Counted from the first letter of the stretch, positions 24,627 through 64,000 are shown. The stretch is 64,000 bases of DNA from an uncultured delta proteobacterium (GCA_963716725.1 CAVQUB010000013.1:64001-128000), one strand, 5' to 3'. The notes: generated by a model from the letters alone, not told the origin. A program made the numbers and translations.

Positions 24627-24677
24627 GTCAGAGGTGACGCCACCTGTGTCATCGGCGCGCGCTGTCCGTAACCTGGC

Positions 24678-36953: not shown

Positions 36954-36976
36954 GAGCCACCCACTCCCTACGACGG

Positions 36977-46111: not shown

Positions 46112-48471
46112 CGTAAGGCAATCGAACTGCCAAATTCCACCGAGTCGAAGGGTACGCGGCGTCGATGGTCGGGTCGAGTGCTGCCCACGAACCCCTGCGG
46201 GGCGGCCGAAAGGCGCCGTTCGGCAGAGCTTCTCCGCGTCGCGCCCGGCGCAGGACACAGCTCCGCCCTCGGCGAGGCGCTCACCGACGCCTCACCCCTC
46301 CCCGAACCCCAACATCAACTGCTCGGGCACGCGCACCTTCGCGTGCTCGACCGGTGGCGCTCGCGGCCCGAGGCCATGCTCCGCGAGCAAGCGGGTGCTC
46401 TCCGCGCGCGTCTTGGCGAGCTCGGCCCAGCGCATCGGACCCGAGCAGCGCGGGCAGGTCTCGACGTCGGCGGCGAAGACATGCGCGAGCAGCCACGCCC
46501 AGCGGTTGCGCGGCGCCGGCGCGTCGTCCCGCTCGCCGAGCAGCTCGAGCTGATCGCCGCGCGCGGGAGGGGGCTTGTTCGCGGTCGCGTCGCGCGTGGG
46601 CGTCGGGACGACGCGCCGGCGCCGCGAAGAGTGGCTCGACAAGACGCCGAAGTAGCGGAGCAAATGGAATCGTGGCGGCGGCACCGCGGCGACCAGACGC
46701 GGGATGATGTCCGCGGGCTCGAACACGAGCGCGCGCGTGCCGTCCCGCCACGCCCGCTTGAAGCCGAGCTCGAGCTTGCCGTCCGCGCGGCGCTCGAGGC
46801 GGTCCTGCGCGACGGGAGGGCGTGTAATGTACTTGCAGAGCCGCTCCACTCTCCGGCGATCCCGGCCGTCCACGACCTGCACGGCGTGGATGTTGATGCC
46901 GCGGACCTCGGCGATGGGCTGGTCGGTCGCGTCGACGATGGGCTGGTCGGTCGCGTCGACGGCGCGAGGGCGCGCGGGTGGCTCCGGCGACGCGATGAGT
47001 CGGAGCGGCGGCTGGCCGGCGCGGTCTCCGCTGACCGAGATGCCCCGGGCCGCAGCGGCGTAGCAGGCAGCGAGGCCGGGCTCGTCGAGGGCGAGGTCGG
47101 GTGGTGAGCCGTCGTCGAGCTCGGGGTCGAGGCTCCGTCCGTGCGCGCGCAGGATCTTCTCGATGCGTGTCGCCGTGCGTGACGCGACCTCCGCGATGTC
47201 GGCGTGCGATGGCGTGTCGAGCTCGGCACCGAGCATGCGCGGTAGCGCGTCGGGTATGATCTGCCACGACACCCCGAACCGATCGGTGGCGCGTAAGGCA
47301 ATCGAACTGCCAAATTCCACCGAGTCGAAGGGTACGCGGCGTCGATGGTCGGGTCGAGTGCTGCCCACGAACCCCTGCGGGGCGGCCGAAAGGCGCCGTT
47401 CGGCAGAGCTTCTCCGCGTCGCGCCCGGCGCAGGACACAGCTCCGCCCTCGGCGAGGCGCTCACCGACGCCTCACCCCTCCCCGAACCCCAACATCAACT
47501 GCTCGGGCACGCGCACCTTCGCGTGCTCGACCGGTGGCGCTCGCGGCCCGAGGCCATGCTCCGCGAGCAAGCGGGTGCTCTCCGCGCGCGTCTTGGCGAG
47601 CTCGGCCCAGCGCATCGGACCCGAGCAGCGCGGGCAGGTCTCGACGTCGGCGGCGAAGACATGCGCGAGCAGCCACGCCCAGCGGTTGCGCGGCGCCGGC
47701 GCGTCGTCCCGCTCGCCGAGCAGCTCGAGCTGATCGCCGCGCGCGGGAGGGGGCTTGTTCGCGGTCGCGTCGCGCGTGGGCGTCGGGACGACGCGCCGGC
47801 GCCGCGAAGAGTGGCTCGACAAGACGCCGAAGTAGCGGAGCAAATGGAATCGTGGCGGCGGCACCGCGGCGACCAGACGCGGGATGATGTCCGCGGGCTC
47901 GAACACGAGCGCGCGCGTGCCGTCCCGCCACGCCCGCTTGAAGCCGAGCTCGAGCTTGCCGTCCGCGCGGCGCTCGAGGCGGTCCTGCGCGACGGGAGGG
48001 CGTGTAATGTACTTGCAGAGCCGCTCCACTCTCCGGCGATCCCGGCCGTCCACGACCTGCACGGCGTGGATGTTGATGCCGCGGACCTCGGCGATGGGCT
48101 GGTCGGTCGCGTCGACGATGGGCTGGTCGGTCGCGTCGACGGCGCGAGGGCGCGCGGGTGGCTCCGGCGACGCGATGAGTCGGAGCGGCGGCTGGCCGGC
48201 GCGGTCTCCGCTGACCGAGATGCCCCGGGCCGCAGCGGCGTAGCAGGCAGCGAGGCCGGGCTCGTCGAGGGCGAGGTCGGGTGGTGAGCCGTCGTCGAGC
48301 TCGGGGTCGAGGCTCCGTCCGTGCGCGCGCAGGATCTTCTCGATGCGTGTCGCCGTGCGTGACGCGACCTCCGCGATGTCGGCGTGCGATGGCGTGTCGA
48401 GCTCGGCACCGAGCATGCGCGGTAGCGCGTCGGGTATGATCTGCCACGACACCCCGAACCGATTGGTGGCG
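46112..48471 (-). repeat. Two tandem 1180-bp units: 3' 1.1 kb of the IS91-like element plus 66 bp of foreign DNA
   Basis: Units 46112-47291 and 47292-48471 look identical except C/T at 47284/48464; a full copy follows. Confidence 0.93.
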
Positions 48472-50330
48472 CGTAAGGCAATCGAACTGCCAAATTCCAC
48501 CGAGTCGAAGGGTACGCGGCGTCGATGGTCGGGTCGAGTGCTGCCCACGAACCCCTGCGGGGCGGCCGAAAGGCGCCGTTCGGCAGAGCTTCTCCGCGTC
48601 GCGCCCGGCGCAGGACACAGCTCCGCCCTCGGCGAGGCGCTCACCGACGCCTCACCCCTCCCCGAACCCCAACATCAACTGCTCGGGCACGCGCACCTTC
48701 GCGTGCTCGACCGGTGGCGCTCGCGGCCCGAGGCCATGCTCCGCGAGCAAGCGGGTGCTCTCCGCGCGCGTCTTGGCGAGCTCGGCCCAGCGCATCGGAC
48801 CCGAGCAGCGCGGGCAGGTCTCGACGTCGGCGGCGAAGACATGCGCGAGCAGCCACGCCCAGCGGTTGCGCGGCGCCGGCGCGTCGTCCCGCTCGCCGAG
48901 CAGCTCGAGCTGATCGCCGCGCGCGGGAGGGGGCTTGTTCGCGGTCGCGTCGCGCGTGGGCGTCGGGACGACGCGCCGGCGCCGCGAAGAGTGGCTCGAC
49001 AAGACGCCGAAGTAGCGGAGCAAATGGAATCGTGGCGGCGGCACCGCGGCGACCAGACGCGGGATGATGTCCGCGGGCTCGAACACGAGCGCGCGCGTGC
49101 CGTCCCGCCACGCCCGCTTGAAGCCGAGCTCGAGCTTGCCGTCCGCGCGGCGCTCGAGGCGGTCCTGCGCGACGGGAGGGCGTGTAATGTACTTGCAGAG
49201 CCGCTCCACTCTCCGGCGATCCCGGCCGTCCACGACCTGCACGGCGTGGATGTTGATGCCGCGGACCTCGGCGATGGGCTGGTCGGTCGCGTCGACGATG
49301 GGCTGGTCGGTCGCGTCGACGGCGCGAGGGCGCGCGGGTGGCTCCGGCGACGCGATGAGTCGGAGCGGCGGCTGGCCGGCGCGGTCTCCGCTGACCGAGA
49401 TGCCCCGGGCCGCAGCGGCGTAGCAGGCAGCGAGGCCGGGCTCGTCGAGGGCGAGGTCGGGTGGTGAGCCGTCGTCGAGCTCGGGGTCGAGGCTCCGTCC
49501 GTGCGCGCGCAGGATCTTCTCGATGCGTGTCGCCGTGCGTGACGCGACCTCCGCGATGTCGGCGTGCGATGGCGTGTCGAGCTCGCGGAACTCGAGCGGA
49601 GCGCTCGGGTCGTCGTCCTGATGCACGTACACGCCGTCGAGCACGAGCGCGTGGAAGTGGACGTTGAGCCGGAGGGCGCTGTCCGCGCGCTGTACGGCCA
49701 CCACCGCGCCCGTGTGGGCGACCGCCATGCTGCCGAGGCCGAGCTCACGCTTCGCTCGCCAGCGCAGCGAGCGGTCCACCTCAGCCATGAACGCGCTCAC
49801 GACCTCGGCGCAGAGCTTGCGGTCGTAGCCGAGCAAGGCGCGCAGGCCCCACGGCAGCGAGCAGATCCAGTGACGGATGGGCACGCGCGGCAGGACGCTT
49901 TGCTCCAAGTGGACGGCGGTGTCCGCCATCCGACGACCGAGGCAAGAGGGGCAGAATCCCCTCTTCTTGCAGCTCAGCGCCACCAGCTCGGAGTACCCGC
50001 ATTTGCGGCAAACCAGATGCAGACAGCCCCGCTCCAGCCGCCCGCAGCGAAGGTACTCCTCGAACTCCTTCACCACGAAGCGCGGCAAGCCGCCGTGCTC
50101 TTCGGCGCGCTCGAGGAACTTCGGCCAGTGCGCTTCGACCGTCTGATAGAGCACGGTGCTCTCCGGCCGGTGACGGAGACGCGACCGCTCGGGCTTGGGG
50201 AAGGCGTGCGCGGGGTGGCCCACGTCACGGGCGCATCAGCGAGCGGCGTGCCAGCGGGATGAGGGCAAAAACCCGCTGGATTTGCCCCTCGCGAGGTGGC
50301 GAAGTGGCGAAGTCAGGTGGCGGTCGGCGA
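48472..50330 (-). mobile_element. IS91-like rolling-circle element, apparently complete (upstream end approximate)
   Basis: Downstream end CGTAAGGCAATCGAACTGCC; upstream motif GGCGAAGTGGCGAAGTCAGGTGGCG shared with copy A (about 21755-21779). Confidence 0.85.
48652..50223 (-). CDS. IS91-family (Y2/HUH) transposase, intact
   Basis: Zn-binding C..C / SCKKRGFCPSC, HUH motif LNVHFHALVLDG, CKYITRP, HLLRYFGVLS. Confidence 0.93.
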   Translation of the reverse strand: MGHPAHAFPKPERSRLRHRPESTVLYQTVEAHWPKFLERAEEHGGLPRFVVKEFEEYLRCGRLERGCLHLVCRKCGYSELVALSCKKRGFCPSCLGRRMADTAVHLEQSVLPRVPIRHWICSLPWGLRALLGYDRKLCAEVVSAFMAEVDRSLRWRAKRELGLGSMAVAHTGAVVAVQRADSALRLNVHFHALVLDGVYVHQDDDPSAPLEFRELDTPSHADIAEVASRTATRIEKILRAHGRSLDPELDDGSPPDLALDEPGLAACYAAAARGISVSGDRAGQPPLRLIASPEPPARPRAVDATDQPIVDATDQPIAEVRGINIHAVQVVDGRDRRRVERLCKYITRPPVAQDRLERRADGKLELGFKRAWRDGTRALVFEPADIIPRLVAAVPPPRFHLLRYFGVLSSHSSRRRRVVPTPTRDATANKPPPARGDQLELLGERDDAPAPRNRWAWLLAHVFAADVETCPRCSGPMRWAELAKTRAESTRLLAEHGLGPRAPPVEHAKVRVPEQLMLGFGEG

Positions 50331-50480
50331 CCATGGGCGCGGGGGCGCTCCTTGGAGTCGAGGTCGGCGGCTCGCCCGCCCCGACCGACCCGGTCAGTCG
50401 AGAGGCAGCCCGAAGGCACCACCATCCAGGTCGGCCTCGACGGCGAGACGTTCACGTTCACGGCGTGAGGGTGGGCGGGC

Positions 50481-50703
50481 GGAGCGTCGTGCTCTTCCCG
50501 CTCCCGTTGGCGCCCAGGAGGGCGACGGACTGCCCCGCTTCGACCTCGAAGCTGACGTCGCTGAGCGCCCAATAGAGGTCTTCGGACTCGATCTCCGCGG
50601 CGCGCCCCGGCCACATCTCGCGCAAGATGAAGGACGCCAGGTGCCGGCGACGATACGCCTTGCTGACCTCTTGGAAGCGGACGGCCAGCGTAGGTTCAGA
50701 CAT
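50481..50703 (-). pseudogene. ABC exporter ATP-binding subunit (Wzt/TagH-like), truncated just after Walker A
   Basis: WALSDVSFEVEAGQSVALLGANGSGKSTTLR followed by unrelated sequence. Confidence 0.85.
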
Positions 50704-51619
50704 GATCGGCCACGACGTGCGCGAAGCGACCGTAGACCAAGGTGCCCAAGACCAGCACGCCCACGCAGCCGCAGACTGCGGCTCCGAGCACGCTGGCGGG
50801 TGGCATTTGGCCGTTGAGCACGATGTCGCGGATGCACTGGATCAGCGAGGCCATGGGATTGAGCAGCATCAACTGGCGCGGGAGTCCTTGGAGCTTCTCC
50901 AACGGATACGCGATGGGCGTCGCCCAGAAGAGCACCACCAGGGCCGAGTTCACGATGTAGCCGACGTCCCGGTAGACCACGTTCAGGACTCCACTCGTCA
51001 GCGCGAGGCCGAGACCCAGTGCCACGAGCAACAGCACGATCAAGGGCAGGGCCAGGAGCGCGGCCGAGACCTGGAACGCTTCGGGGTAGAAGGCGATCAA
51101 GGGCAGGATGCTCAGCGCCGCGAACCCGAGGTTGATCACGTGGGACAAGACTGTGCCGAGGGCGACGATCCAGGCGGGGACGCTGGTGTGCTTGATCACC
51201 TGAGCGTGATGCAGGAAGCATGTCGTCCCGTCAGTCCAGGCGTGGGACAAGAAGTGCCAAGGCACGAGCCCCAGCATCAGGAACACCGGGTACGCCCGGA
51301 GGTCTCCGGGGAAGATCAGCCCGAAGAACACGCTCATCACGATCATCAGGATGATCGGGTTGGCCATGGGCCAAAGCAGACCCAGGGCTTGGGCGCGGTA
51401 GGCCGCCCGAAAGCGCCCGATCGTGAACGCTTCCAGTGCGTGAACGTGCTCGCGGAGCTCGATCGAGGCGTTGCGGAGCCGCGACCGCTGTCGGGCGCGA
51501 TCGCCAAAGACCGTCCCATCGGGGGTGTGGTGCCGCCACGTCGCGTCTCGGCTGGTCACCCGGCGATCCTTACCTCCCCGCGGCGTCGGCGGAAACGGGT
51601 TAGAGTCCGGAGCGCGCAT
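50696..51619 (-). CDS. ABC-2 polysaccharide exporter permease (Wzm-like); start uncertain
   Basis: YRAQALGLLW..NP, LNVVYRDVGYI, FWATPIAYP, LNPMASLIQCIR. Confidence 0.85.
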   Translation of the reverse strand: MRAPDSNPFPPTPRGGKDRRVTSRDATWRHHTPDGTVFGDRARQRSRLRNASIELREHVHALEAFTIGRFRAAYRAQALGLLWPMANPIILMIVMSVFFGLIFPGDLRAYPVFLMLGLVPWHFLSHAWTDGTTCFLHHAQVIKHTSVPAWIVALGTVLSHVINLGFAALSILPLIAFYPEAFQVSAALLALPLIVLLLVALGLGLALTSGVLNVVYRDVGYIVNSALVVLFWATPIAYPLEKLQGLPRQLMLLNPMASLIQCIRDIVLNGQMPPASVLGAAVCGCVGVLVLGTLVYGRFAHVVADHV

Positions 51620-52351: not shown

Positions 52352-53150
52352 TCACTGTGGGCGGTGCCGGTAGCGGCCGTGGGGGCGCAGGCGTCGAGCC
52401 GCGGTAGAGTCCTTGCGGAGGTTCACCCGGAAGCCCCAGCCCTCGCGGCTCTCGAGGATCCACGCCAGCTCGCCCAGCGCCGCGCGCAGGCGCAGCACCC
52501 ACAGGCGGACGCGCTCTGCTTCGGCAGGAGCCTCGGCGGGGGACAGCTCCCTGGCGATGACCTCTGCCGTGACCCACGCGCCGCGGCGCTGGAGCAACAA
52601 GAGCAGAAGCGCGTAGCCCTGTGGCGTCAGCTTTACGGGTCGATCGTCGAACCGCACCACGCGCGGCTCTGGGTCGAGCTGCACCCGGATCTCTTCGGAG
52701 GCGGGGTCGCCGGACAGGCGGCGGATCAGGCTCGCTACCTGGACCGGAAAGACCTGCGGATCGAGGGGCAGCGACAACCACAGGTGAGCGCCCCCGCGGT
52801 ATCCATCGACCACCACGCTCTTCGCCGCCGCGTGGGCAGCCACGACGATCAGGCCGAAAAACCCGCTCTGCGCGAGCTCCGCGGCCCGCACTGCGCCCCA
52901 GCGTCCGTCGCTTGCCGTCGGCGAGCAGCACCGCCTCGGCGCTGTCGCTGGCGCTCTGCCCGGCGGGCTGAAACCAGATCAAGGGCTTACCCAGCGCGCG
53001 ACCGTCTGCCGCGTGGATCTGCTCGAGTGCGAGCGCCTCGACATCGCGCGTCTCGACCACGACGAGCGGCATGCGAAGCACGCGCGTTCCCGACCCGAAC
53101 TGCGATTGCTTCACGGGCCGGAGCATACCGAGGCGCATGACACGTGTCAT
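52352..53150 (-). CDS. OmpR-type winged-helix regulator with degenerate receiver domain, probable frameshift near 52895
   Basis: C-terminal VKLTPQGYALLLLL..VT...LRLRAALG..ILESREGWGFR. The N-terminal part appears to be in another frame. Confidence 0.6.
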
Positions 53151-53242
53151 GCGACCGATGCAACGCGCGTTGCGAGCGGAGTGGTGCAAGCGCGCGAAGC
53201 TGCGTGCCGCGTGTCTCCCAAAATGAAACGCGCGTTTCATTT
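53134..53242. promoter_or_regulatory. Three perfect palindromes between divergent genes
   Basis: CGCATGACACGTGTCATGCG (53134-53153), GCAACGCGCGTTGC (53160-53173), AAATGAAACGCGCGTTTCATTT (53221-53242). Confidence 0.55.
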
Positions 53243-53324
53243 CGACGCTCGCCACGCGGATGCCATCGCAGAGTTGCTTGCGTGAAGCGTCGCCAATCGC
53301 GCAACGTGCGCTCGGAGGCAACGC

Positions 53325-55343
53325 ATGGAGACGAACCTTGCACGGAAGAAAATCGAACGCCGCCGCCGCGGACGAATCGCGGTGTGGCTCTGCTCGCTGG
53401 CGGCGCTGGGTGCCCTGGAAGGCTGTGGCCGTCACGAAGAGGCACCCGTCTCGACCAACAGCCAGCGAGTCAACGGCGTGTACATCCCCGAGGGCGGCGC
53501 CAGCGCGCCGTGGGTCTCGGCGGACTGGGTGGACCTCGACGTCCACTCACGCCTGGCACTGCCGGCGAGCTTCGGTCTGGTGATGAGCAACAACGCTGGC
53601 GAAGACGTCACGGTCGGGGTCACCCTCGAGAGCTTCGGCCTCGAAACCCGAAAGGCGTCCATCTTCCTGGGCAGCCTGGTGGTCCCCGCGCGCGCGTCGT
53701 TCACGGTGCCCATCGACCTGTCGTGGCTCCCGATCCGCTCCGTGGGCTCGGTGAGCAGCGTCCACGCCAGCCTGCAGCTCTACAAGGGGCGCGCTCAGCG
53801 CCAGCTCACCACGTCGCGCCTGGCGTACGAGTTCGAGCCGGGGCTCTCGACGATCACGCTCTGGGGCTCCACCGCCCGGCGCTTCGCTCTGTCGAACCCG
53901 CGGGACCCGCGCCAGGAGCGGATGCAGCTCGCGGCGCTGGACGCGACGCTGCTCACGCCACAAGGTGACGTCTGGAACGGCAGCAGCTTCGTGCCCGTCG
54001 CCTCGCTTCCGCCGGTGGGCGGCGCGGGCTACCAGATCCGGGGCTCTGTCGACTTCTGGGAGGCGTGGCCCGCCAGTGTGCCGGCGCCCGGCACCCCCCT
54101 CGACGGCCCACCGGGCCCAACGAAGGTGTGCGCGTCCCACACGTGGAAGTTCTACGACGCCAGCGTGGGCGAGGACTACTTCTGGATGAACGGCTTCAAC
54201 GCGGAGCCGGCGCGGTACACCGCAGCGCTGCTCGAGAACTACGACACCGGTCAAGCGGTGTGGGCAGGCTGGCTTGGGTCGTCGGGCTGCACGCCCACCA
54301 TGGATCTGCCGGCGGGCACCTACGGGTTGACTCTTGCGTCCAAGCTGCGCACTCAGACCAACAGCGGGGCGGTGACCATGGATGTCGAGACGGAGCAGAG
54401 CTTCGACTATGGCGGCGCTCCGCCCAACACGCCGGTGGTGGGCTACGCCCGCACGCTCTTCGACGTCCACCCGGGCCCGGCGCCCAGCACGGTGCAGGTC
54501 GGCGTCTACTTGACCACGGTGGCCTCGAACATCCTGGTGGTCGGGGGTAGAATGTTCGACATGCCCGATCACGGGCTGAGCCAGGGGCACATCCGAGTGA
54601 CGACGCGCGATCCGAGCTCGAACAACATCGATTGCTCGTCGGGCGGCGGCGAGCCGCCCATCTCGTGGGCGTCGACCAGTCATGCGCTGAAGGAGAGCAC
54701 GATCTGCATCGGGCGAAAGAACACCTTGGACCCCTCGGACGCGTGGAGCAAGTTCGTGGTGGGCCACGAATTCGGGCATACGGTGCAGGGCTTCGGCATG
54801 GGCAACCTGACGACCGACTACGACAACCCGACCTCGCAGCCGCTCTGCCGCTGCGATCACGTGGCTTCTTCCAACCAGTACCATTGCTTGCAGTCGCAAG
54901 AGGTCATCGGCGCGGGCGCGTCCGAGGGCTTCGCGCACCTGTACGCGAGCCGGATCTTCAATCTCCAAGAGCAGTCCGATTGCGCCTTCGGGTACTACAA
55001 GGAGTTCATGGACAGCTCGTACGCGGTGCAGCAACCCCCGGTCGCCGTGAACTGCAAGACCCCAGTGAAGTGGCTAGAAAACCAGTGCCTCACGGCGAAC
55101 CGCGGCGTGGAGTACGACTGGATGAACTTCCTGTACGACATCAACAGCGCACCGTCGTCCCAACGCACCACGCTGGCCAACCTGTGGCAGGTGTACTTGA
55201 CCGCGTGCTCGCCACCCGAGTGCGAAAGCGAGAACCTCTCGTGGTCGGCGCTCGATAACGGAGCGAAGGCGTACTACGGGGTCAGCGATCCCAAGTACGT
55301 CTGGTTGCATCAGTCCGGCAACAACTTCGGCGTCAACCACTGA
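53325..55343 (+). CDS. Secreted lipoprotein with a zincin-like HExxH motif (putative metallopeptidase)
   Basis: LEGC lipobox; VVGHEFGH and downstream SEGFAH. Confidence 0.7.
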   Translation: METNLARKKIERRRRGRIAVWLCSLAALGALEGCGRHEEAPVSTNSQRVNGVYIPEGGASAPWVSADWVDLDVHSRLALPASFGLVMSNNAGEDVTVGVTLESFGLETRKASIFLGSLVVPARASFTVPIDLSWLPIRSVGSVSSVHASLQLYKGRAQRQLTTSRLAYEFEPGLSTITLWGSTARRFALSNPRDPRQERMQLAALDATLLTPQGDVWNGSSFVPVASLPPVGGAGYQIRGSVDFWEAWPASVPAPGTPLDGPPGPTKVCASHTWKFYDASVGEDYFWMNGFNAEPARYTAALLENYDTGQAVWAGWLGSSGCTPTMDLPAGTYGLTLASKLRTQTNSGAVTMDVETEQSFDYGGAPPNTPVVGYARTLFDVHPGPAPSTVQVGVYLTTVASNILVVGGRMFDMPDHGLSQGHIRVTTRDPSSNNIDCSSGGGEPPISWASTSHALKESTICIGRKNTLDPSDAWSKFVVGHEFGHTVQGFGMGNLTTDYDNPTSQPLCRCDHVASSNQYHCLQSQEVIGAGASEGFAHLYASRIFNLQEQSDCAFGYYKEFMDSSYAVQQPPVAVNCKTPVKWLENQCLTANRGVEYDWMNFLYDINSAPSSQRTTLANLWQVYLTACSPPECESENLSWSALDNGAKAYYGVSDPKYVWLHQSGNNFGVNH

Positions 55344-55349
55344 GTCCCC

Positions 55350-56495
55350 ATGCGCAGCACCCTCGCCTGGTTGATCGCGTCGTGCCTCGCCGGCTGCTCG
55401 TGCAGCGACGGCGGCGGCAGCTCTGCAGGCGGTCAACCAGGCACCGGCGCCACCTCGAGCTCGGGCGGAAGCTCGGGCTCGGGGGGCACTGGGGGCGCGA
55501 TCACAGAGGGCGGCACCGATGCCACCACGGACGCCGACTCCGGCCCGAGCTTCGACTGCGAGCACGCGCCGGTCACCGAGGACTGCAAGTCCGGCTGGTG
55601 CCGCATCCCGGCCGGCTGCTTCGTGCTGGGCTCGCCGAAGGACGAGTGGGGCCGCGGCGCCAACACCGAGAACCAGGTGAAGGTCACGCTCACCCACCCG
55701 TTCCTGATCCAGCAGAAGGAGACCTCTCAGGCCGACTGGGTCGCCCTCGGTCTGAAGAATCCCAGCACCGCCCCGATCAAGCCCGGCAACTCGGGCGACT
55801 GCCTCGAGCCCGCTTGCCCCGTGGGCAACGTGACGTGGTTCGAGGCGGCGGGGTTTGCCAACCTGCTCTCGCAGAAGGAGGGCCTGAAGCCCTGCTACGT
55901 GCTCGAGGGTTGCACCGGACAGCTCGGCGAGGGCATGGCCTGCACCAAGATCGGCACCACAGCGCCCAGCTATTACGAGTGCGAGGGGTACCGCCTGCCC
56001 GGCGAGGCCGAGTGGGAATACGCCGCGCGGGCAGGGACCACGACGGCGTTCTACACGGGGCCGATAACGGCATTTCCGACCAACGCCCTCGCGTGCAACT
56101 CAGACCCCGCGCTCATCGCCGCTGCCTGGTATTGCGCCAACTCCGGCACCGTCACGCACCCCGGCGGACTGAGGCAGAAGAACCAGTGGGGATTGTACGA
56201 CATGCTCGGAAACTGTGTGGAGTGGACCAACGACGTCATGAAGGGTCTGGGCTACGGGACGACCCCGCTGTCTGATCCTTGGGGTCAGGTCAAGATCTCA
56301 AACGTGATCGAGGCCGTGGTTATCCGCGGAGGCGGACCCATCTTCTCCGCGTCGAGCTGTCGAGCCGCGGCGCACTTCAGCGGTGGCCGCTCCGATCGCG
56401 GCGGCGGCATCGGCTTCCGCCTCGTCCGCAGCCTGCTCACCACCCCCGACGCGTCCACCCCCGACGCCTCCCCACCCGACGCGTCCACCGACTGA
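55350..56495 (+). CDS. FGE-sulfatase (SUMF1/C-type-lectin fold) lipoprotein, copy 1
   Basis: LAGC lipobox, PVGNVTWFEA, YRLPGEAEWEYAARAG, NQWGLYDMLGNCVEW, RGG, GFRLVR. Confidence 0.9.
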   Translation: MRSTLAWLIASCLAGCSCSDGGGSSAGGQPGTGATSSSGGSSGSGGTGGAITEGGTDATTDADSGPSFDCEHAPVTEDCKSGWCRIPAGCFVLGSPKDEWGRGANTENQVKVTLTHPFLIQQKETSQADWVALGLKNPSTAPIKPGNSGDCLEPACPVGNVTWFEAAGFANLLSQKEGLKPCYVLEGCTGQLGEGMACTKIGTTAPSYYECEGYRLPGEAEWEYAARAGTTTAFYTGPITAFPTNALACNSDPALIAAAWYCANSGTVTHPGGLRQKNQWGLYDMLGNCVEWTNDVMKGLGYGTTPLSDPWGQVKISNVIEAVVIRGGGPIFSASSCRAAAHFSGGRSDRGGGIGFRLVRSLLTTPDASTPDASPPDASTD

Positions 56496-57021
56496 CCGAT
56501 GCTCATTGCATCAGCGCACGCCCCCGCCGCCGCCAAGGTCTCGCGCCACCAACGCCAGAGTCCCCCCCGGCCGCGCGCAGGGCGCGCGAGCCGCTCATCG
56601 GGCCCATCGACGGCGCGCCCGAGCACGGCCTTGGCGGGGGACCGCAGGCGCGCAGGCGCCAGCGCGCACACCGAGCCCTTCCGCACGCCCCGCGACGCGC
56701 CGAGCACCTGCGAGGCGGGGGCAACCAAAGACCCCAGTGAAGTGGCTCGAAAACCAGTGCCTCACCGCGAACCGCGGCGTGGAGTACGACTGGATGAACT
56801 TCCTCTATGACATCAACAGCGCGCCAACTGCGCAGCGCACCACGCTTGCCAACCTGTGGCAGGTGTATCTCACGGCCTGCTCCCCACCCGAGTGCGAGAG
56901 CGAGAACCTCTCGTGGCCGGCGCTCGATAATGGAGCGAAGGCGTACTACGGGCTGAGCGACGCGAGGTACACCCGGATCGTCTCGTCCGGCAGCAACTTC
57001 GGCGTCAACCACTGAGCTCCC

Positions 57022-58176
57022 ATGCGCAGCACCCTCGCCTGGTTGGTCGCCTCGTGCCTCGCCGGTTGCTCTTGCAGCGACGGCGGCGGCGGCAGCTCTG
57101 CAGCACCCGCAGGCGGCCAACCAGGCACCGGCGCCACCTCGAGCTCGGGCGGAAGCTCGGGCTCGGGGGGCACCGGGGGCGCAGCCACCGAGGCTGGCAC
57201 AGACGCCGCGGCCGACGCCGATTCCGGCCCGAGCTTCGACTGCCAGCACGTGCCAGTCACCGAGGACTGCAAGGCCGGCTGGTGCCGCATCCCAGCCGGC
57301 TGCTTCGTGATGGGCTCGCCGAAGGACGAGTGGGGCCGAGGCGCCAACGACGAGAACCAGGTGAAGGTCACGCTCACCCACCCGTTCCTGATCCAGCAGA
57401 AGGAGACCTCTCAGGCCGACTGGGTCGCCCTCGGTCTGAAGAATCCCAGCACCGCTCCGATCAAACCCGGCAACTCCGGCGACTGCCTCGAGCCCGCTTG
57501 CCCCGTCGGCAACGTGACGTGGTTCGAGGCGGCGGGGTTTGCCAACTTGCTCTCGCAGAAGGAAGGGCTGAAGCCCTGCTACGTGCTCGAGGGCTGCACC
57601 GGACAGCTCGGCGAGGGCATGGCCTGCACCCAGATCGGCACCACAGCGCCCACCTACTATGAGTGCGAGGGGTACCGCCTCCCCGGCGAGGCCGAGTGGG
57701 AATACGCCGCGCGGGCAGGGACCACGACGGCTTTCTACACGGGACCGATCACGGTTTTCCCCGGAGACATGCTCGCGTGCAACAGCGACCCGGTCCTTCT
57801 GGGAGCGGCCTGGCACTGTGCTAACTCCGGCACCGTCACGCACCCTGGAGGGCTGAAGGCGAGGAGTGCCTGGGGACTCTACGACTCGCTCGGGAACGCA
57901 CACGAGTGGACAAACGACCTCATGAAAGGGTTGGGCTACGGCTCGGGGCCGCTGGTCGACCCCTGGGGCGAACTCAAGATCCTGGCAGCCATTGAAGCAG
58001 TCGTCATCCGGGGCGGAGGGCCGATCACTCCGCCGTCGAGGTGCAGGGCCGCGGCGCACTTCAGCGGTGGCCGCTCCGATCGCGGCGGCGGCATCGGTTT
58101 CCGACTCGTCCGCAGCCTGCTCACCACCCCCGACGCGTCCACCGACGCCGCGCCACCCGACGCGTCCACCAACTGA
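57022..58176 (+). CDS. FGE-sulfatase-fold lipoprotein, copy 2
   Basis: Paralog of copy 1 with the same motifs. Confidence 0.9.
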   Translation: MRSTLAWLVASCLAGCSCSDGGGGSSAAPAGGQPGTGATSSSGGSSGSGGTGGAATEAGTDAAADADSGPSFDCQHVPVTEDCKAGWCRIPAGCFVMGSPKDEWGRGANDENQVKVTLTHPFLIQQKETSQADWVALGLKNPSTAPIKPGNSGDCLEPACPVGNVTWFEAAGFANLLSQKEGLKPCYVLEGCTGQLGEGMACTQIGTTAPTYYECEGYRLPGEAEWEYAARAGTTTAFYTGPITVFPGDMLACNSDPVLLGAAWHCANSGTVTHPGGLKARSAWGLYDSLGNAHEWTNDLMKGLGYGSGPLVDPWGELKILAAIEAVVIRGGGPITPPSRCRAAAHFSGGRSDRGGGIGFRLVRSLLTTPDASTDAAPPDASTN

Positions 58177-58795
58177 CCGATGCTCATTGCATCAGCGCAC
58201 GCCCCCGCCGCCGCCAAGCTCTCGCGCCGCCAACGCAAGAGTCCCCCCGGCCGCGCGCAGGGCGCGCCAGCCGCTCATCGCGCCCTTCGACGGCGCGCCC
58301 GAGCACGGCCTTGGCGGGGGACCGCAGGCGCGCAGGCGCCAGCGCGCGCACCGAGCCCCTCCGCGCGCACCGCGAAGCGCCGAGCACCTGCGAGGCGGGG
58401 GCAACCAAGCATCAAGAGCAGTCCGACTGCGCCTTCGGATACTACAAGGAGTTCATGGACAGCTCGTATACGGTGCAGCAACCCCCGGTCGCCGTGAACT
58501 GCAAGACCCCGGTGAAGTGGCTCGAGAACCAGTGCCTCACGGCGAACCGCGGCGTGGAGTACGACTGGATGAACTTCCTGTATGACATCAACTCGGCGCC
58601 GTCGTCCCAACGCACCACGCTGGCCAACCTGTGGCAGGTCTATCTCACGGCCTGCTCGCCACCCGAGTGCGAAAGCGAGAACCTCTCGTGGTCGGCACTG
58701 AAGGATGGCGCGAAGGCGTACTACGGGGAGTTCAACGCCCGCTATGTGAAGCTCGCCCAATCCGGCGACGACTTCGGCGTCAACCACTGAGCCCC

Positions 58796-59941
58796 ATGCG
58801 CAGCACCCTCGCCTGGTTGATCGCCTCGTGCCTCGCCGGCTGCTCGTGCAGCGACGGCGGCGGCAGCTCCGCAGCACCCGCAGGCGGTCAATCAGGCACC
58901 GGCGCCACCTCGAGCTCGGGCGGAAGCTCGGGCTCGGGGGGCACCGGGGGCGCAGCCACCGAGGCTGGCACCGACGCCACCACGGACGCCGACTCGGGCC
59001 CGACCTTCGACTGTCAGCACGCGCCGGTGGTCGAAGACTGCAAGGCCGGCTGGTGCCGCATCCCAGCCGGCTGCTTCGTGATGGGCTCGCCGAAGGACGA
59101 GTGGGGCCGCGGCGCCAACACCGAGAACCAGGTGAAGGTCACGCTCACCCACCCGTTCCTGATCCAGCAGAAGGAGACCTCTCAGGCCGACTGGGGCGCC
59201 CTCGGCCTGAAGAATCCGAGCGGTCCTCCACCAAAGCCCGACAGCATGGGCGACTGCCTCGAGCCCGCCTGCCCCGTCGGCAACGTGACGTGGTTCGAGG
59301 CGGCGGGGTTTGCCAACCTGCTCTCGCAAAAGGAGGGCTTGAAGCCCTGCTACGTGCTCGAGGGCTGCACCGGACAGCTCGGCGAGGGCATGAACTGCAC
59401 CAGCATCGGCACCTCGGCGCCCAGCTACTACGAGTGCGAGGGCTACCGCCTGCCCGGCGAGGCCGAGTGGGAGTACGCGGCCCGGGCCGGGACCACGACG
59501 GCCTTCTACACGGGTCCGATCACCAAGCTGGCGCAGACGTCTGACTGCGAGAGCGATCCCAACCTCGTGAAGGCCGCTTGGTACTGCGCCAACTCCGGGA
59601 CGCTCACGCATCCCGGTGGACAGAAGACGAAGAACGCGTGGGGCCTTCACGACGTGCTGGGGAACGCTTACGAGTGGACGAATGACGTGATGAAGGGGTT
59701 GGGCTATGGGATAGGGCCGCTCGAGGACCCGTGGGGCAAAGTCGAAATCAAGGACTCCATCGAGGGCATCGTGCTGCGCGGGGGCGGCACGATTACGCCG
59801 GCGGCCCGCTGCCGTGTCGCTGCTCACTTCGAGCTCTCCCGACCGTCGCGAGGCCCCGGCGGCGGCTTCCGCCTCGTCCGCAGCCTGCTCGCCACCCCCG
59901 ACGCTCTCCCGACGCTCCCCACCGACGCGTCCACCGACTGA
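58796..59941 (+). CDS. FGE-sulfatase-fold lipoprotein, copy 3
   Basis: Paralog of copy 1; ATG at 58796 (MRSTLAW). Confidence 0.9.
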   Translation: MRSTLAWLIASCLAGCSCSDGGGSSAAPAGGQSGTGATSSSGGSSGSGGTGGAATEAGTDATTDADSGPTFDCQHAPVVEDCKAGWCRIPAGCFVMGSPKDEWGRGANTENQVKVTLTHPFLIQQKETSQADWGALGLKNPSGPPPKPDSMGDCLEPACPVGNVTWFEAAGFANLLSQKEGLKPCYVLEGCTGQLGEGMNCTSIGTSAPSYYECEGYRLPGEAEWEYAARAGTTTAFYTGPITKLAQTSDCESDPNLVKAAWYCANSGTLTHPGGQKTKNAWGLHDVLGNAYEWTNDVMKGLGYGIGPLEDPWGKVEIKDSIEGIVLRGGGTITPAARCRVAAHFELSRPSRGPGGGFRLVRSLLATPDALPTLPTDASTD

Positions 59942-60472
59942 CCGATGCCCATCGCCTCAGCGCACGCCCCCGCCGCCGCCAGGCTTCCGCGCCGCCAACG
60001 CAAGAGTCCCCCCCGGCCGCGCGCAGGGCGCGCGAGCCGCTCATTGCGCCCATCGACGGCGCGCCCGAGCACGGCCTTGGCGGGGGACCGCAGGCGCGCA
60101 GGCGCCAGCGCGCGCACCGAGCCCTTCCGCACGCCCCGCGACGCGCCGAGCACCTGCGAGGCGGGGGCAACCAAAGACCCCAGTGAAGTGGCTACGAAAA
60201 CCAGTGCCTCACGGCAAACCGCGGCGTGGAGTACGACTGGATGAACTTCCTCTATGACATCAACAGCGCGCCAACTGCGCAGCGCACCACGCTGGCCAAC
60301 CTGTGGCAGGTGTACTTGACGGCCTGCTCGCCACCCGAGTGCGAAAGCGAGAACCTCTCGTGGTCAGCGCTCGATGACGGAGCGAACGCGTACTACGGGG
60401 GCTTTAGCGACGCCACGGTACGCTCGGCTCGTCTCGTCCGGCGACGACTTCGGCGTCAACCACTGAGCTCCC

Positions 60473-61636
60473 ATGCGCATCCCCCTCGCCTGGTTGATCG
60501 CCTCGTGCCTCGCCGGCTGCTCGTGCAGCGACGGCGGCGGCAGCTCCGCAGCACCCGCAGGCGGCCAACCAGGCACCGGCGCCACCTCGAGCTCGGGCGG
60601 AAGCTCGGGCTCGGGGGGCACCGGGGGCGCAGCCACCGAGGCTGGCACCGACGCCGCAACAGACGCGGACGCCGGCCCGAGCTTCGACTGCCAGCACGCG
60701 CCGGTCACCGAGGACTGCAAGGCCGGCTGGTGCCGCATCCCAGCCGGCTGCTTCGTGATGGGCTCGCCGAAAGACGAGTGGGGCCGCGGCGCCAACACCG
60801 AGAATCAGGTGAAGGTCACGCTCACCCACCCGTTCCTGATCCAGCAGAAGGAGACCTCTCAGGCCGACTGGGTCGCCCTGGGCCTGAAGAATCCCAGCAC
60901 CGCTCCGATCAAACCCGGCAACTCCGGCGACTGCCTCGAGCCCGCCTGCCCAGTCGGCAACGTGACGTGGTTCGAGGCGGCGGGCTTTGCCAACCTGCTC
61001 TCGCAGAAGGAGGGCCTGAAGCCCTGCTACGTGCTCGAGGGTTGCACCGGACAGCTCGGCGAGGGCATGGCCTGCACCAGCATCGGCACCACCGCGCCCA
61101 GCTACTACGAGTGCGAGGGCTACCGCCTCCCCGGCGAGGCCGAGTGGGAGTACGCCGCGCGGGCAGGGACCACGACGGCCTTCTACACCGGACCGATCAC
61201 GAAGCTCGCGCAAACCTCGGACTGCGAGCTCGACCCCAGCCTCGTGAAGGCCGCTTGGTACTGCGCCAACTCCGGCACGCTCACGCATCCCGGTGGACAG
61301 AAAACGAAAAACGCTTGGGGTCTTCACGACGTGCTCGGGAACGCGCACGAGTGGACTAATGATGTTGAGAAGGGTCTCGGGTATGGCACCGGCGCCCTTG
61401 TAGATCCTTGGGGGGAGCTGAAGCTGGCGACGCCGGAAATCGTCGTGCTGCGCGGGGGCGGCCCCATCTCACCGGGCGCTCGTTGCCGCGCTGCAGCCCA
61501 TTTCGGCGGACCGAGGCACGGCAAGGGCAGTGGGGCGGGCTTCCGCCTCGTCCGCAGCCTGCTCGCCACCCCCGACGCCTCCACCTTCGACGCCTCGCCA
61601 CCCGACGCGTCCCCACCCGACGCGTCCACCGACTGA
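60473..61636 (+). CDS. FGE-sulfatase-fold lipoprotein, copy 4
   Basis: Paralog of copy 1 with the same motifs. Confidence 0.9.
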   Translation: MRIPLAWLIASCLAGCSCSDGGGSSAAPAGGQPGTGATSSSGGSSGSGGTGGAATEAGTDAATDADAGPSFDCQHAPVTEDCKAGWCRIPAGCFVMGSPKDEWGRGANTENQVKVTLTHPFLIQQKETSQADWVALGLKNPSTAPIKPGNSGDCLEPACPVGNVTWFEAAGFANLLSQKEGLKPCYVLEGCTGQLGEGMACTSIGTTAPSYYECEGYRLPGEAEWEYAARAGTTTAFYTGPITKLAQTSDCELDPSLVKAAWYCANSGTLTHPGGQKTKNAWGLHDVLGNAHEWTNDVEKGLGYGTGALVDPWGELKLATPEIVVLRGGGPISPGARCRAAAHFGGPRHGKGSGAGFRLVRSLLATPDASTFDASPPDASPPDASTD

Positions 61637-62166
61637 CCGATGCCCATCGCCCCAGCGCACGCTCCCGCCACCGGCAAGCTGTCGCGCCACCAGCGACAGA
61701 GTCCCCCCGGCCGCGCGCAGAGCGCGCCAGCCGCTCATCGCGCCCTTCGACGGCGCGCCCGAGCACGGCCTTGGCGGGGGACCGCAGGCGCGCAGGCGCC
61801 AGCGCGCGCACCGAGCCCCTCCGCGCGCCCCGCGACGCGCCGAGCACCTGCGAGGCGGGGGCAACCAAAGACCCCAGTGAAGTGGCTCGAAAACCAGTGC
61901 CTCACCGCGAACCGCGGCGTGGAGTACGACTGGATGAACTTCCTCTACGACATCAACAGCGCACCAACCGCGCAGCGCACCACGCTGGCCAACCTGTGGC
62001 AGGTGTACTTGACGGCCTGCTCGCCACCCGAGTGCGAAAGCGAGAACCTCTCGTGGTCAGCGCTCGATGGCGCGGCGATACGCGTACTACGGGGGCTTTG
62101 GAGACCCGACGGTACGCACGGCTGCACCAATCCGGCGACGACTTCGGCGTCAACCACTGAGCTCCC

Positions 62167-62929
62167 ATGCGCATCCCCCTCGCCTGGTTGATCGCCTCGT
62201 GCCTCGCCGGCTGCTCGTGCAGCGACGGCGGCGGCAGCTCCGCAGCACCCGCAGGGGGCCAACCAGGCACCGGCGCCACCTCGAGCTCGGGCGGAAGCTC
62301 GGGCTCGGGGGGCACCGGGGGCGCAGCCACCGAGGCTGGCACAGACGCCGCAACAGACGCGGACGCCGGTCCGAGCTTCGACTGCCAGCACGCGCCGGTC
62401 ACCGAGGACTGCAAGGCCGGCTGGTGCCGCATCCCAGCCGGCTGCTTCGTGATGGGCTCGCCGAAAGACGAGTGGGGCCGCGGCGCCAACACCGAGAATC
62501 AGGTGAAGGTCACGCTCACCCACCCGTTCCTGATCCAGCAGAAGGAGACCTCTCAGGCCGACTGGGTCGCCCTCGGCCTGAAGAATCCCAGCACCGCTCC
62601 AATCAAACCCGGCAACTCCGGCGACTGCCTCGAGCCCGCCTGCCCAGTCGGCAACGTGACGTGGTTCGAGGCGGCGGGGTTTGCCAACCTGCTTTCGCAG
62701 AAGGAGGGCCTGAAGCCCTGCTACGTGCTCGAGGGCTGCACCGGCCAGCTTGGCGAGGGGATGGCCTGCACCAGCATCGGGACCACCGCGCCCAGCTACT
62801 ACGAGTGCGAGGGCTACCGCCTCCCCGGCGAGGCCGAGTGGGAGTACGCCGCGCGGGCAGGGACCACGACGGCGTTCTACACGGGACCGATCACGGTTTT
62901 CCCCGGAGACACGCTCGCGTGCAACAGCG
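62167..62929 (+). pseudogene. FGE-sulfatase-fold lipoprotein, copy 5, interrupted by an IS91-like element
   Basis: Breaks at AACAGCG|CGTAAGG, where copy 2 continues AACAGCGACCCG. Confidence 0.9.
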
Positions 62930-64000
62930 CGTAAGGCAATCGAACTGCCAAATTCCACCGAGTCGAAGGGTACGCGGCGTCGATGGTCGGGTCGAGTGCT
63001 GCCCACGAACCCCTGCGGGGCGGCCGAAAGGCGCCGTTCGGCAGAGCTTCTCCGCGTCGCGCCCGGCGCAGGACACAGCTCCGCCCTCGGCGAGGCGCTC
63101 ACCGACGCCTCACCCCTCCCCGAACCCCAACATCAACTGCTCGGGCACGCGCACCTTCGCGTGCTCGACCGGTGGCGCTCGCGGCCCGAGGCCATGCTCC
63201 GCGAGCAAGCGGGTGCTCTCCGCGCGCGTCTTGGCGAGCTCGGCCCAGCGCATCGGACCCGAGCAGCGCGGGCAGGTCTCGACGTCGGCGGCGAAGACAT
63301 GCGCGAGCAGCCACGCCCAGCGGTTGCGCGGCGCCGGCGCGTCGTCCCGCTCGCCGAGCAGCTCGAGCTGATCGCCGCGCGCGGGAGGGGGCTTGTTCGC
63401 GGTCGCGTCGCGCGTGGGCGTCGGGACGACGCGCCGGCGCCGCGAAGAGTGGCTCGACAAGACGCCGAAGTAGCGGAGCAAATGGAATCGTGGCGGCGGC
63501 ACCGCGGCGACCAGACGCGGGATGATGTCCGCGGGCTCGAACACGAGCGCGCGCGTGCCGTCCCGCCACGCCCGCTTGAAGCCGAGCTCGAGCTTGCCGT
63601 CCGCGCGGCGCTCGAGGCGGTCCTGCGCGACGGGAGGGCGTGTAATGTACTTGCAGAGCCGCTCCACTCTCCGGCGATCCCGGCCGTCCACGACCTGCAC
63701 GGCGTGGATGTTGATGCCGCGGACCTCGGCGATGGGCTGGTCGGTCGCGTCGACGATGGGCTGGTCGGTCGCGTCGACGGCGCGAGGGCGCGCGGGTGGC
63801 TCCGGCGACGCGATGAGTCGGAGCGGCGGCTGGCCGGCGCGGTCTCCGCTGACCGAGATGCCCCGGGCCGCAGCGGCGTAGCAGGCAGCGAGGCCGGGCT
63901 CGTCGAGGGCGAGGTCGGGTGGTGAGCCGTCGTCGAGCTCGGGGTCGAGGCTCCGTCCGTGCGCGCGCAGGATCTTCTCGATGCGTGTCGCCGTGCGTGA
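62930..64000 (-). mobile_element. IS91-like element copy E (runs off the window)
   Basis: Appears identical to the sequence from 48472 onward. Confidence 0.93.

Follow-up and report, generated by a model that had tools for sequence, protein, structure and literature searches.

A Polymorphic Array of HExxH-Protein Tips and FGE-Fold Lipoproteins in an Uncultured Delta Proteobacterium, with a Possible Likeness to Effector/Immunity Loci Carrying Orphan Modules

Introduction

What does a bacterium gain from a complete gene pair that is followed by four partial copies of itself, alike almost everywhere and different in a few short patches? The question is raised by positions 53325–62929 of a 64,000-nt stretch of DNA from an uncultured delta proteobacterium (GCA_963716725.1, CAVQUB010000013.1:64001-128000). 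This whole stretch, with a G+C content of about 70%, is called the window here, and coordinates of open reading frames (ORFs), repeats and domains are counted along its full length. In the array, a complete gene for a putative lipoprotein with a HExxH motif, a predicted protease and so named below, stands with an adjoining gene for a lipoprotein of the formylglycine-generating enzyme (FGE) fold. Behind this pair lie four units, each made of a 3' fragment of the protease gene (an orphan tip) and a further FGE gene. The variable patches of these genes are mosaics that have been exchanged within the array and between strains, and the module is tentatively read as one that may work like an effector/immunity locus with orphan modules.

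Organization of the Array

Self-BLAST and a repeat search found five direct repeat units, which start at 55056, 56728, 58503, 60174 and 61868 with a period of 1672–1775 nt; the third unit has 90 extra bases, from 58413. Whole units are 85–90% identical to one another, well beyond chance, and each consists of the last 95 codons of the protease gene, a gap of 5–6 nt, an FGE gene and a spacer of 232 nt. In the first unit, the tip belongs to the full-length protease gene itself and is joined by the FGE gene F0, which begins six bases after the protease stop codon. The original prediction had described a full HExxH gene with its FGE gene and then four fragment/FGE units, a layout with which ORFs, self-BLAST and Pfam agree and to which the spacer is an addition. 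The features are listed below, where L001 is one of two related genome loci and P numbers denote related proteins, all described further on; helix positions are those of an AlphaFold2 (AF2) model.

52352–52891, minus strand: divergently transcribed winged-helix regulator, 179 aa (Pfam Trans_reg_C, E 3.8e-08)
53325–55343, plus strand: full-length HExxH protein, a putative lipoprotein, 672 aa, with GHEFGH at residues 480–485
55281–55325, plus strand: hypervariable tip patch, codons 653–667, predicted to form a loop and, on the last helix (656–667), the side that is exposed
55350–56495, plus strand: F0, FGE-fold lipoprotein, 381 aa (PF03781, E 4.6e-31)
56070–56411, plus strand: variable third of F0, residues 241–354, with several patches between conserved fold motifs in the alignment
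56496–56727, no strand: first copy of the non-coding spacer; further copies at 58177–58409, 59942–60173 and 61637–61867
56728–57015, plus strand: orphan tip U1, codons 578–672, open, without a start
57022–58176, plus strand: F1, intact orphan FGE lipoprotein, 384 aa (PF03781)
58410–58790, plus strand: orphan tip U2, long form, codons 547–672, open, sharing His547 with the alleles of L001 and P0001
58796–59941, plus strand: F2, intact orphan FGE lipoprotein, 381 aa, with a variable region like that of the main FGE gene of L001
60174–60466, plus strand: orphan tip U3, with two 1-nt insertions
60473–61636, plus strand: F3, intact orphan FGE lipoprotein, 387 aa (PF03781)
61868–62160, plus strand: orphan tip U4, with two 1-nt insertions and an unbroken counterpart in P0277
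62167–62926, plus strand: F4, FGE lipoprotein, a mosaic of which about 253 codons precede an IS91 insertion that truncates it
62927–64000, minus strand: IS91-family copy ending the array, 100% identical over 300 nt compared to the copies starting at 46109, 47289 and 48469

The orphan protease fragments start at codon 578 (three fragments) or codon 547 (one) of the 672-codon gene, and none of the four has an in-frame start codon of its own. The earlier entry belongs to the third unit, which begins at 58410 with a junction unlike those of the other units. The U1 and U2 tips are open in the frame of the protease gene, and the U3 and U4 tips carry two frameshifting 1-nt insertions apiece. In every unit the FGE gene starts 5–6 nt past the stop codon of the tip. 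Two of the four orphan tips are broken, while neither the three complete orphan FGE genes nor the truncated F4 contain a frameshift or a stop, so that the FGE frames stay intact over about 4.2 kb. Intact orphan FGE genes beside partly broken tips are the asymmetry expected of orphan modules. The fifth unit is interrupted inside its FGE gene, at 62926/62927, by the IS91-family copy.

Patchy Divergence and Mosaic Alleles

Alleles available as DNA were five FGE genes and five tips. Divergence between the units is confined to patches, with identities of 87–99% outside and 24–88% inside. The patches are protease codons 653–667, FGE residues of about 140–150, and several stretches within FGE residues 241–354 up to the GFR motif. 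Between units, the conserved part of the tip is 87–96% identical and the tip patch (55279–55320) 50–76%; for the FGE genes the values are 90–99% in the 5' part and 24–88% in the variable segments (56069–56412). The F1–F3 proteins are 82–88% identical overall to F0, and far less so in the patches. The variant strings quoted in the original prediction were read again exactly as given, both those of the tips and those of the FGE proteins, the latter being AFPTNALA, VFPGDMLA and KLAQTSD and, just before GFR, SGGRSDRGGGI, ELSRPSRGPGG and GGPRHGKGSGA.

In the variable third of the FGE genes, synonymous divergence (dS) is 1.17–2.16 or beyond correction and the uncorrected proportion of synonymous differences (pS) is 0.59–0.80, against 0.17–0.33 and 0.15–0.27, respectively, in codons 1–240 of these genes. 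The ratio of nonsynonymous to synonymous divergence (dN/dS) in this third is 0.11–0.26 in deep pairs and 0.54 for F2 against the FGE gene of L001. Since the synonymous sites are saturated and dN/dS is as low as 0.11–0.26, the patches appear to be deeply diverged, old and discrete alleles and not young sequences under fast positive selection, and their flanks seem to have been kept alike or recently exchanged. Divergence of a non-purifying kind, which had been looked for in the variable segments, did not emerge from these ratios; with dS saturated, the test is unable to detect positive selection in the variable third.

Both inside the array and from strain to strain, the patches occur in reassorted, mosaic combinations. 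The F4/U4 unit is identical to U3 at 743 of 757 flank positions, and its first FGE patch agrees with U1 at 34 of 35 positions and with U3 at 15 of 35. F0 and F1 are identical at 41 of 41 nt in the patch before GFR and at 65 of 100 nt just upstream of that patch.

Exchange Between Strains

A word-indexed protein search found three full-length protease relatives, with identities of 93%, 84% and 52%, and two genome loci were found, L001 and L002; the nearest relatives are metagenome-assembled genomes (MAGs) labelled Polyangiaceae and Myxococcales. The L001 and L002 contigs stop about 0.7–1.2 kb past the protease gene, inside the repeat. The L001 protease is 97% identical to that of the window, and the 3' end of its gene is a mosaic that is U2-like (98–100%) just upstream of the unit, U1-like (78–84%) in the tip patch, and also contains U0-like blocks. 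The variable third of the L001 FGE gene is 95–98% identical to the U2/F2 sequence of the window (56132–56400 in U0 coordinates) and 52–77% identical to the main copy. The cassette that is joined to the full gene therefore differs across strains, a comparison that the original prediction had proposed as a test.

Orphan fragments in other assemblies are represented by short predicted proteins whose reading frame runs across the same spacer and on into a tip. The main tip string of the window is an orphan in P0278, the main tip of P0001 is an orphan in P0273 and P0281, and that of P0002 in P0284 and P0285. In the reverse direction, the U1 tip of the window has nearly the same string as the orphan P0280, the U2 tip has the same string as the orphan P0283, and the broken U4 tip is intact in P0277. 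An allele that one strain has on its main gene is thus found as an orphan in another. Close metagenome relatives of the FGE genes lie on contigs of 1.3–1.8 kb, about one unit in length, and show further combinations of patches. At greater distance, the protease P0003 (52% identical) and the FGE protein P0164 (59%) both come from 10227-nt contigs, and P0002 and P0160 both come from 8682-nt contigs, which suggests that the members of each pair share a contig and that the pairing of protease and FGE protein is kept.

Homology between the window, L001 and L002 begins at the 3' end of the regulator gene (window 52316/52352), and the DNA upstream is mutually unrelated, covering 1–3580 in L001, 1–5806 in L002 and the sequence before 52316 in the window. 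With three unrelated upstream neighbourhoods, the module of regulator, protease and FGE array sits in variable or mobile DNA. The winged-helix regulator accompanies the module in other genomes.

The Spacer and the Cassette Junctions

The spacer is 92–95% identical between units, and its 3' half has five variable columns in 121 nt. A coding role was considered for it and is ruled out by the even distribution of its substitutions over the codon positions (8/8/9) and by a 1-nt indel, so that no reading frame is kept. Rfam gave no match at E ≤ 1 in 52800–63200, the fold z-score of −1.49 is not distinctive, and the inverted repeats are short and imperfect. Across lineages the spacer is more conserved than synonymous sites: its translation is nearly unchanged before the orphan tips of the L002-like lineage, for which the pS of the gene body to the window is 0.41. 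A scan of 52800–63000 for sigma-70-like promoters and for terminators left the plus strand empty, although such a scan carries little weight for a myxobacterium.

Across strains, the orphan junctions combine a constant spacer end with an entry into the protease gene at codon 547, 578, 605 or 608, and three of the four junctions in the window are identical. A constant spacer end would be expected of a defined recombination or cassette boundary and not of random deletions. In some strains, though not in the window, an ATG that closely follows the FGE stop shares the reading frame of the orphan tip, which yields predicted ORFs of 142–145 aa with an Arg/Pro/Ala-rich head (P0281 and P0285).

The Protease and Its Hypervariable Tip

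The variability of the protease is concentrated near its C-terminus. Between the window and L001 proteins, 10 of the 15 patch residues differ against 11 of 652 elsewhere (21 of 672 in total), and six of the 17 residues that differ between the P0002 and L002 proteins fall within the 15-residue patch. In the window/L001 comparison, pS is 0.077 and the proportion of nonsynonymous differences (pN) 0.005 in the protease body, against 0.62 and 0.42 in the tip patch. Among 19 copies of residues 653–667 there are 13 distinct strings, in which Y658, S664 and G665 are fixed, L661 is nearly fixed, and positions 653–656, 659, 660, 662, 663 and 666 vary. The last helix of the protease comprises residues 656–667, as assigned by DSSP on the AF2 model, and the spacing of fixed and variable positions would place the variable residues on one exposed face of it, by helix periodicity alone. 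In the conserved part of the tips, orphans included, substitutions are distributed 7/1/28 over the codon positions (28 of 36 at third positions), and the cassettes have therefore diverged under protein-level constraint.

The protease starts with a signal peptide, followed by Cys34 in a putative lipobox, LEGC, which was found by reading and has an atypical Glu at −2; Cys34 is invariant across the four closest proteins. The sequence matches no Pfam and no NCBIfam family at E ≤ 0.01. PADLOC left both the protease and F0 without a match, and tblastn of the protease against a plasmid collection gave none. For residues 440–672 Protein Atlas returned unnamed clusters only, with M36/M4 leads of 0.79–0.81 that are below the reliability line of the tool. 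A profile search of PDB sequences gave only a weak macroglobulin-domain match, at residues 59–133; this first beta-sandwich weakly matches the macroglobulin domain of the alpha-2-macroglobulin YfhM (E 0.005).

The AF2 model of the protease (pLDDT 88.6, pTM 0.88) predicts a build of N-terminal beta-sandwich domains and a thermolysin-like zinc-peptidase domain. Foldseek matched it to thermolysin, neutral proteases and aureolysin with a probability of 1.00, TM (target) of 0.45–0.50 and identities of 9–14%. The solved M4 matches (1npc, 1esp, 1kei, 1bqb and 4ger) all have a probability of 1.00 and an rmsd of 8–10 Å, which is a distant likeness. In 78 aligned relatives, H481, E482, H485, four cysteines and D598 are invariant, and conservation is 90% or more at E534 and at additional cysteines; eight cysteines are invariant or nearly so. 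E534 lies within helix 528–545 of the model, and we take it to be the third zinc ligand, by analogy with gluzincins. A profile of four close sequences collected 1048 representatives at E ≤ 1e-3 among 1.84 billion, with a shared core of about the last 200 residues. Because a confident model resembles thermolysin-type proteases at 9–14% identity, the protease appears to represent an unnamed family that is distantly gluzincin-like and has beta-sandwich domains at the N-terminus. Among 32 larger relatives that were scanned, 12 have N-terminal Kelch propellers (P0015, P0028, P0033, P0040, P0055, P0064, P0074, P0079, P0105, P0145, P0147 and P0152), and the relative P0075 has a subtilase domain.

The FGE-Fold Lipoproteins

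The F0–F3 proteins match PF03781 with E values of 4e-28 to 5e-31. In F0 a canonical lipobox, LAGC, is followed by a Gly/Ser-rich linker and the FGE domain, which is C-type-lectin-like; the AF2 model has a pLDDT of at least 90 in each 10-residue block from 71 to 360. TvpA of Treponema denticola (2y3c) is the closest PDB sequence (E 1.3e-18) and also the top Foldseek match (E 3.6e-20, TM (target) 0.77), with PvdO, true FGEs and PorK next. TvpA itself is said, by Le Coq and Ghosh in 2011, to be a lipoprotein. In the alignment with the FGE of S. coelicolor, the first cysteine of LCHDSYC falls on F332 and the second on the invariant C337; if the two are the catalytic pair of FGE, as we assume, the window proteins keep one of the two. 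A preprint on FGE-like proteins states that FGE catalysis needs two cysteines (10.1101/2021.05.21.445229).

The variable region of TvpA, given as residues 285–329 at the extreme C-terminus (PMC6328139), corresponds to about residues 312–360 of F0, that is to its last two variable patches, the offset of the PDB numbering being estimated. The earlier equation of the stretch before GFR with the variable ligand-binding region of such folds thus holds to the precision of an approximate mapping. In targets of diversity-generating retroelements (DGRs) with C-type-lectin folds, the variable residues form solvent-exposed binding sites (PMC6328139), and in the conflict systems of multicellular bacteria FGS/FGE domains are described in the role of hypervariable binders (PMC7159879). 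The TvpA match, the lost cysteine and the precedent of Tsi3, described below, suggest by analogy that the FGE proteins of the array may likewise act as binders. A complex prediction for protease residues 56–672 with F0 residues 66–365 scored 0.00 against a mark of 0.32 and, made without controls, carries no weight either way.

Comparison with Known Systems

The layout of the array recalls the orphan modules of contact-dependent growth inhibition (CDI) and Rhs loci. These orphans are start-less 3' fragments with conserved 5' sequence and intact partner genes, in arrays that are interrupted by insertion sequence (IS) elements; the main module of one strain can be an orphan in another, and in one described case a deletion joined an orphan to the main cdiA gene (PMC3150448). 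The parallel with orphan toxin-tip/immunity modules that the original prediction had drawn is sound in respect of the start-less fragments, the conserved 5' sequence and the intact partner genes. The window has, in the same way, a full gene followed by start-less fragments that keep the sequence 5' of the variable part, each with a partner gene; the main module of one strain is an orphan elsewhere, and an IS element interrupts the array. The partner genes behind the orphan fragments are intact in F1–F3 and cut by the IS in F4, and the match to CDI and Rhs is one of layout only. Unlike in those systems, the variable part is a 15-residue helix face in a conserved catalytic domain and not a toxin domain after VENN or PxxxxDPxGL. 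The protease has no RHS, YD or other toxin Pfam domain and, on reading of its translation, no VENN string, and it lacks a two-partner-secretion, type VI secretion system (T6SS) or YD-shell delivery part. Its partner is not a small immunity protein, but a lipoprotein of 381–387 aa with a hypervariable region of its own. The conserved non-coding spacer in each unit and the piecemeal recombination of patches are further differences.

The closest parallel for the FGE proteins is Tsi3. According to the preprint, Tsi3 proteins, of Acinetobacter and others, are FGE-like T6SS immunity proteins that act by binding, without cross-protection, and about 84% of their occurrences are in groups of at least two adjacent, differing copies (10.1101/2021.05.21.445229). 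The window resembles this with its five adjacent, differing FGE copies, and both kinds of protein have the FGE-sulfatase domain; Tsi3 lacks the catalytic cysteines, of which the window FGE proteins would, by the alignment above, lack one. Unlike the Tsi3 loci, the window has no VgrG, Hcp, PAAR, DUF4123 or Tse3-like effector among the 39 ORFs scanned, which are a part of all its ORFs; the partner here is a same-strand thermolysin-like lipoprotein, and the units include fragments of the putative effector gene. With TvpA the FGE proteins share the FGE-type C-type-lectin fold and variability towards the C-terminal end of the fold. Unlike the DGR-diversified TvpA, they draw on a limited set of old alleles that are moved by recombination and not on open-ended mutagenesis. 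The array thus has the fold of DGR targets without a DGR.

Like the thermolysin-type gluzincins (M4/M36), the protease has HExxH, a conserved downstream Glu (E534) and a distant fold match; unlike them, it matches no Peptidase_M4, M4_C or M36 model and has extra beta-sandwich domains and eight conserved cysteines. Two further systems offer precedents. In the E-group DNase colicins, a conserved enzyme owes its specificity for Im proteins to a small variable exosite. At the pilE/pilS loci of Neisseria, silent partial copies donate variable segments by gene conversion between conserved blocks. Both likenesses are analogies of principle, since the proteins, compartments and organisms are unrelated. 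A further point of comparison is SitA/SitI, lipoprotein toxins of myxobacteria that move by TraAB-dependent outer-membrane exchange and pair a polymorphic C-terminal toxin domain with a downstream immunity gene (PMC5562445, PMC8546572); in the protease, LEGC with its unusual Glu at −2 is a candidate for the corresponding lipoprotein signal. By analogy, then, the array may work like a CDI/Rhs orphan array and like the runs of Tsi3 genes, yet without a toxin-domain swap or a T6SS context. Full-text searches found no description of the protease/FGE pair; the nearest report is the Tsi3 preprint (10.1101/2021.05.21.445229).

Interpretation of the Array

The reading that we favour, although it falls a little short of being probable, is that of a polymorphic two-gene lipoprotein module with spare cassettes, which would work in the manner of effector/immunity loci that carry orphan modules. 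Through homologous recombination between the conserved blocks, gene conversion could transfer a patch of an orphan to the pair that is expressed; by an alternative route a deletion would load an orphan unit onto the main gene, and unequal crossing-over would expand or shrink the array. The variable face of the FGE-fold protein would bind the variable helix of the protease and so inhibit it specifically or confer immunity to it. Protection against the variants of neighbours would be widened by those orphan FGE genes that are intact. Frequency-dependent selection would then keep many alleles in the population. The effector/immunity role and the contact between tip and FGE protein are proposed from the layout and from analogy, and the chances of their being right are slightly less than those of their being wrong.

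If it is true, polymorphic effector/immunity systems gain with this array a protein pair that is new to them, one member of which comes from an unnamed thermolysin-like lipoprotein family of about 1000 clusters at 50% identity and the other of which is a TvpA-like FGE lipoprotein; the Polyangiaceae have hardly been studied for kin discrimination. Specificity would reside in about 15 helix residues and a few loops of a lectin fold, which would make it unusually tractable for swapping; the pool of alleles can already be seen in public data. A region of the fold that is hypermutated by DGRs would also be diversified by the shuffling of old alleles, linking two fields. The conserved spacer, whose junction end is constant, may be a sign of a specific mechanism of recombination.

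Several observations weigh against the effector/immunity reading. What varies in the putative effector is a stretch of no more than 15 residues in an enzyme that is invariant elsewhere, and not a replaceable toxin domain set off by a demarcation motif, and the protease has no recognizable delivery domain beyond its signal peptide, nor a T6SS, CdiB or Rhs association among the window ORFs scanned. Two orphan tips are frameshifted and unusable as they stand, and dN/dS is below 1 in all comparisons. The tip and FGE patches also reassort independently, as F0 and F1 share the last FGE patch yet have different tips, the U3 and U4 tips are similar yet stand before different first FGE patches, and the second half of the L001 tip is U1-like while the L001 FGE gene is U2-like; a strict lock-and-key pair would resist such shuffling. 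None of the 32 larger protease relatives scanned has a fused FGE domain, and for so large a protease family, with 1048 representatives, a general functional link between the two families is not established. That both proteins appear to be lipoproteins fits a shared compartment and does not indicate which compartment, or whose cell, is concerned.

The freedom with which tips and FGE patches recombine would be easier to understand without strict pairing, as in a less probable but serious alternative in which the FGE lipoproteins sense or adhere to foreign molecules at the surface or in the periplasm, with prey, phage and kin markers as examples of what they bind. The array would then be a germline set of specificities, all expressed, with the protease as a conserved signalling or processing partner whose tip varies as an exposed surface part or by docking on each receptor. 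This agrees with the intactness of all orphan FGE genes and with TvpA, a DGR-diversified ligand-binding lipoprotein, as the closest solved relative by both sequence and fold, and also with the approximate overlap of the last variable patches with the DGR-diversified region and the role of FGS/FGE domains as hypervariable binders in conflict systems (PMC7159879). It leaves unexplained why protease 3' fragments with coding-type substitution occur in every unit and why the tip is the most variable part of the protease, and it has no known ligand. Somewhat less likely again is that FGE genes were amplified for their own sake, for immunity or binding, and that the protease fragments are passengers of a duplication that began inside the protease gene by chance; the fragments might carry the FGE promoter, 5' leader or coupling signals, and tip variation would be an independent polymorphism of the protease. 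One amplified duplication would be expected to leave identical junctions, as three of the four in the window are, and the constant distance from tip stop to FGE start, the decay of two tips and no FGE gene, and the common occurrence of FGE-like immunity gene arrays without effector fragments (10.1101/2021.05.21.445229) point the same way. The same passengers, however, carry main-gene tip alleles of other strains, and orphan-type sequence stands on the main gene of L001; the conserved tip parts differ mainly at third positions, the entry into the protease gene differs four ways across strains, and the plus strand shows no sigma-70-like promoter, for what that scan is worth in a myxobacterium. 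A long shot is a germline repertoire of lectin-fold receptors that owes its diversity to no retroelement: myxobacteria of this lineage would hold old binding-site alleles of a TvpA-like FGE-fold lipoprotein and shuffle them through segmental gene conversion, with the expressed pair on one side and cassettes that are silent or semi-silent on the other. The terminal helix of the protease would co-vary as a docking or recognition partner, which is just as doubtful, and the whole would be a lock-and-key self/non-self or antigen-sensing device of a multicellular bacterium that reaches the outcome of a DGR by pilin-type cassette recombination, a suggestion of equally low probability. The conserved spacer, with its constant end in four independent junction types, would in that case be the recombination signal, which is no more probable.

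Two more mundane explanations fare far worse. Tandem repeats arise easily, the related MAG contigs end inside the repeat, and odd, perfectly identical tandem IS pieces of 1180 nt lie nearby, all of which might point to a neutral, decaying duplication or a repeat assembly artefact. The units, however, differ by 5–15% and therefore are not collapsed or duplicated reads; patches of 24–88% identity lie beside flanks of 87–99% with a 5- to 10-fold difference in synonymous divergence. Such patchiness, the intact FGE frames over about 4.2 kb and the recurrence of the same alleles in independent assemblies exclude neutral decay and assembly error for practical purposes, and they are rated very improbable. 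The least credible explanation, to be dismissed almost entirely, is mutagenesis of the FGE variable region by a DGR, which the TvpA-like lectin fold and the C-terminal position of the variable stretch would bring to mind. Mismatches are not adenine-specific (128 between U0 and U2, at A 23, C 46, G 32 and T 27) and are spread over the four bases in all 40 ordered comparisons; the patches contain indels, the repeat search found no extra copy resembling a template repeat, identical alleles are stable across strains, and the sole reverse transcriptase among the 39 ORFs scanned (30836–32560) has a group II intron maturase domain. The four-base mismatches, the indels, the group II type of the reverse transcriptase and the absence of a template-like repeat exclude a DGR mechanism.

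Surrounding DNA

A genuine Rhs/teneurin-like locus lies at 33854–45572 on the minus strand. It includes an ORF of 1485 aa with Dictyostelium-type repeats and a teneurin TTR domain, an ORF of 1461 aa with NHL, YD-shell and RHS core, and a 690-aa ORF (33854–35923) with RHS repeats and RHS core that is a candidate orphan Rhs module. Two IS91 copies of the same orientation flank a segment with an ABC-transporter remnant (50458–51619), the regulator and the array. On the upstream side, partial IS91 copies of 1180 nt stand in perfect tandem at 46109 and 47289, before a complete copy at 48469–50235 whose transposase (48652–50223) matches the Pfam families Y2_Tnp and Zn_Tnp_IS91; the perfect tandem could be due to rolling-circle multimers or to an assembly effect. 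The reverse transcriptase at 30836–32560, on the minus strand, matches RVT_1 (E 9.6e-42) and, in its group II intron maturase domain, GIIM (E 3.4e-15). With a true Rhs locus and many IS elements in the window, this is therefore island-like DNA; DDE transposases are found at 20057–21466 and 29122–30201, and IS91 fragments at 23651–24742 and 28521–29333.

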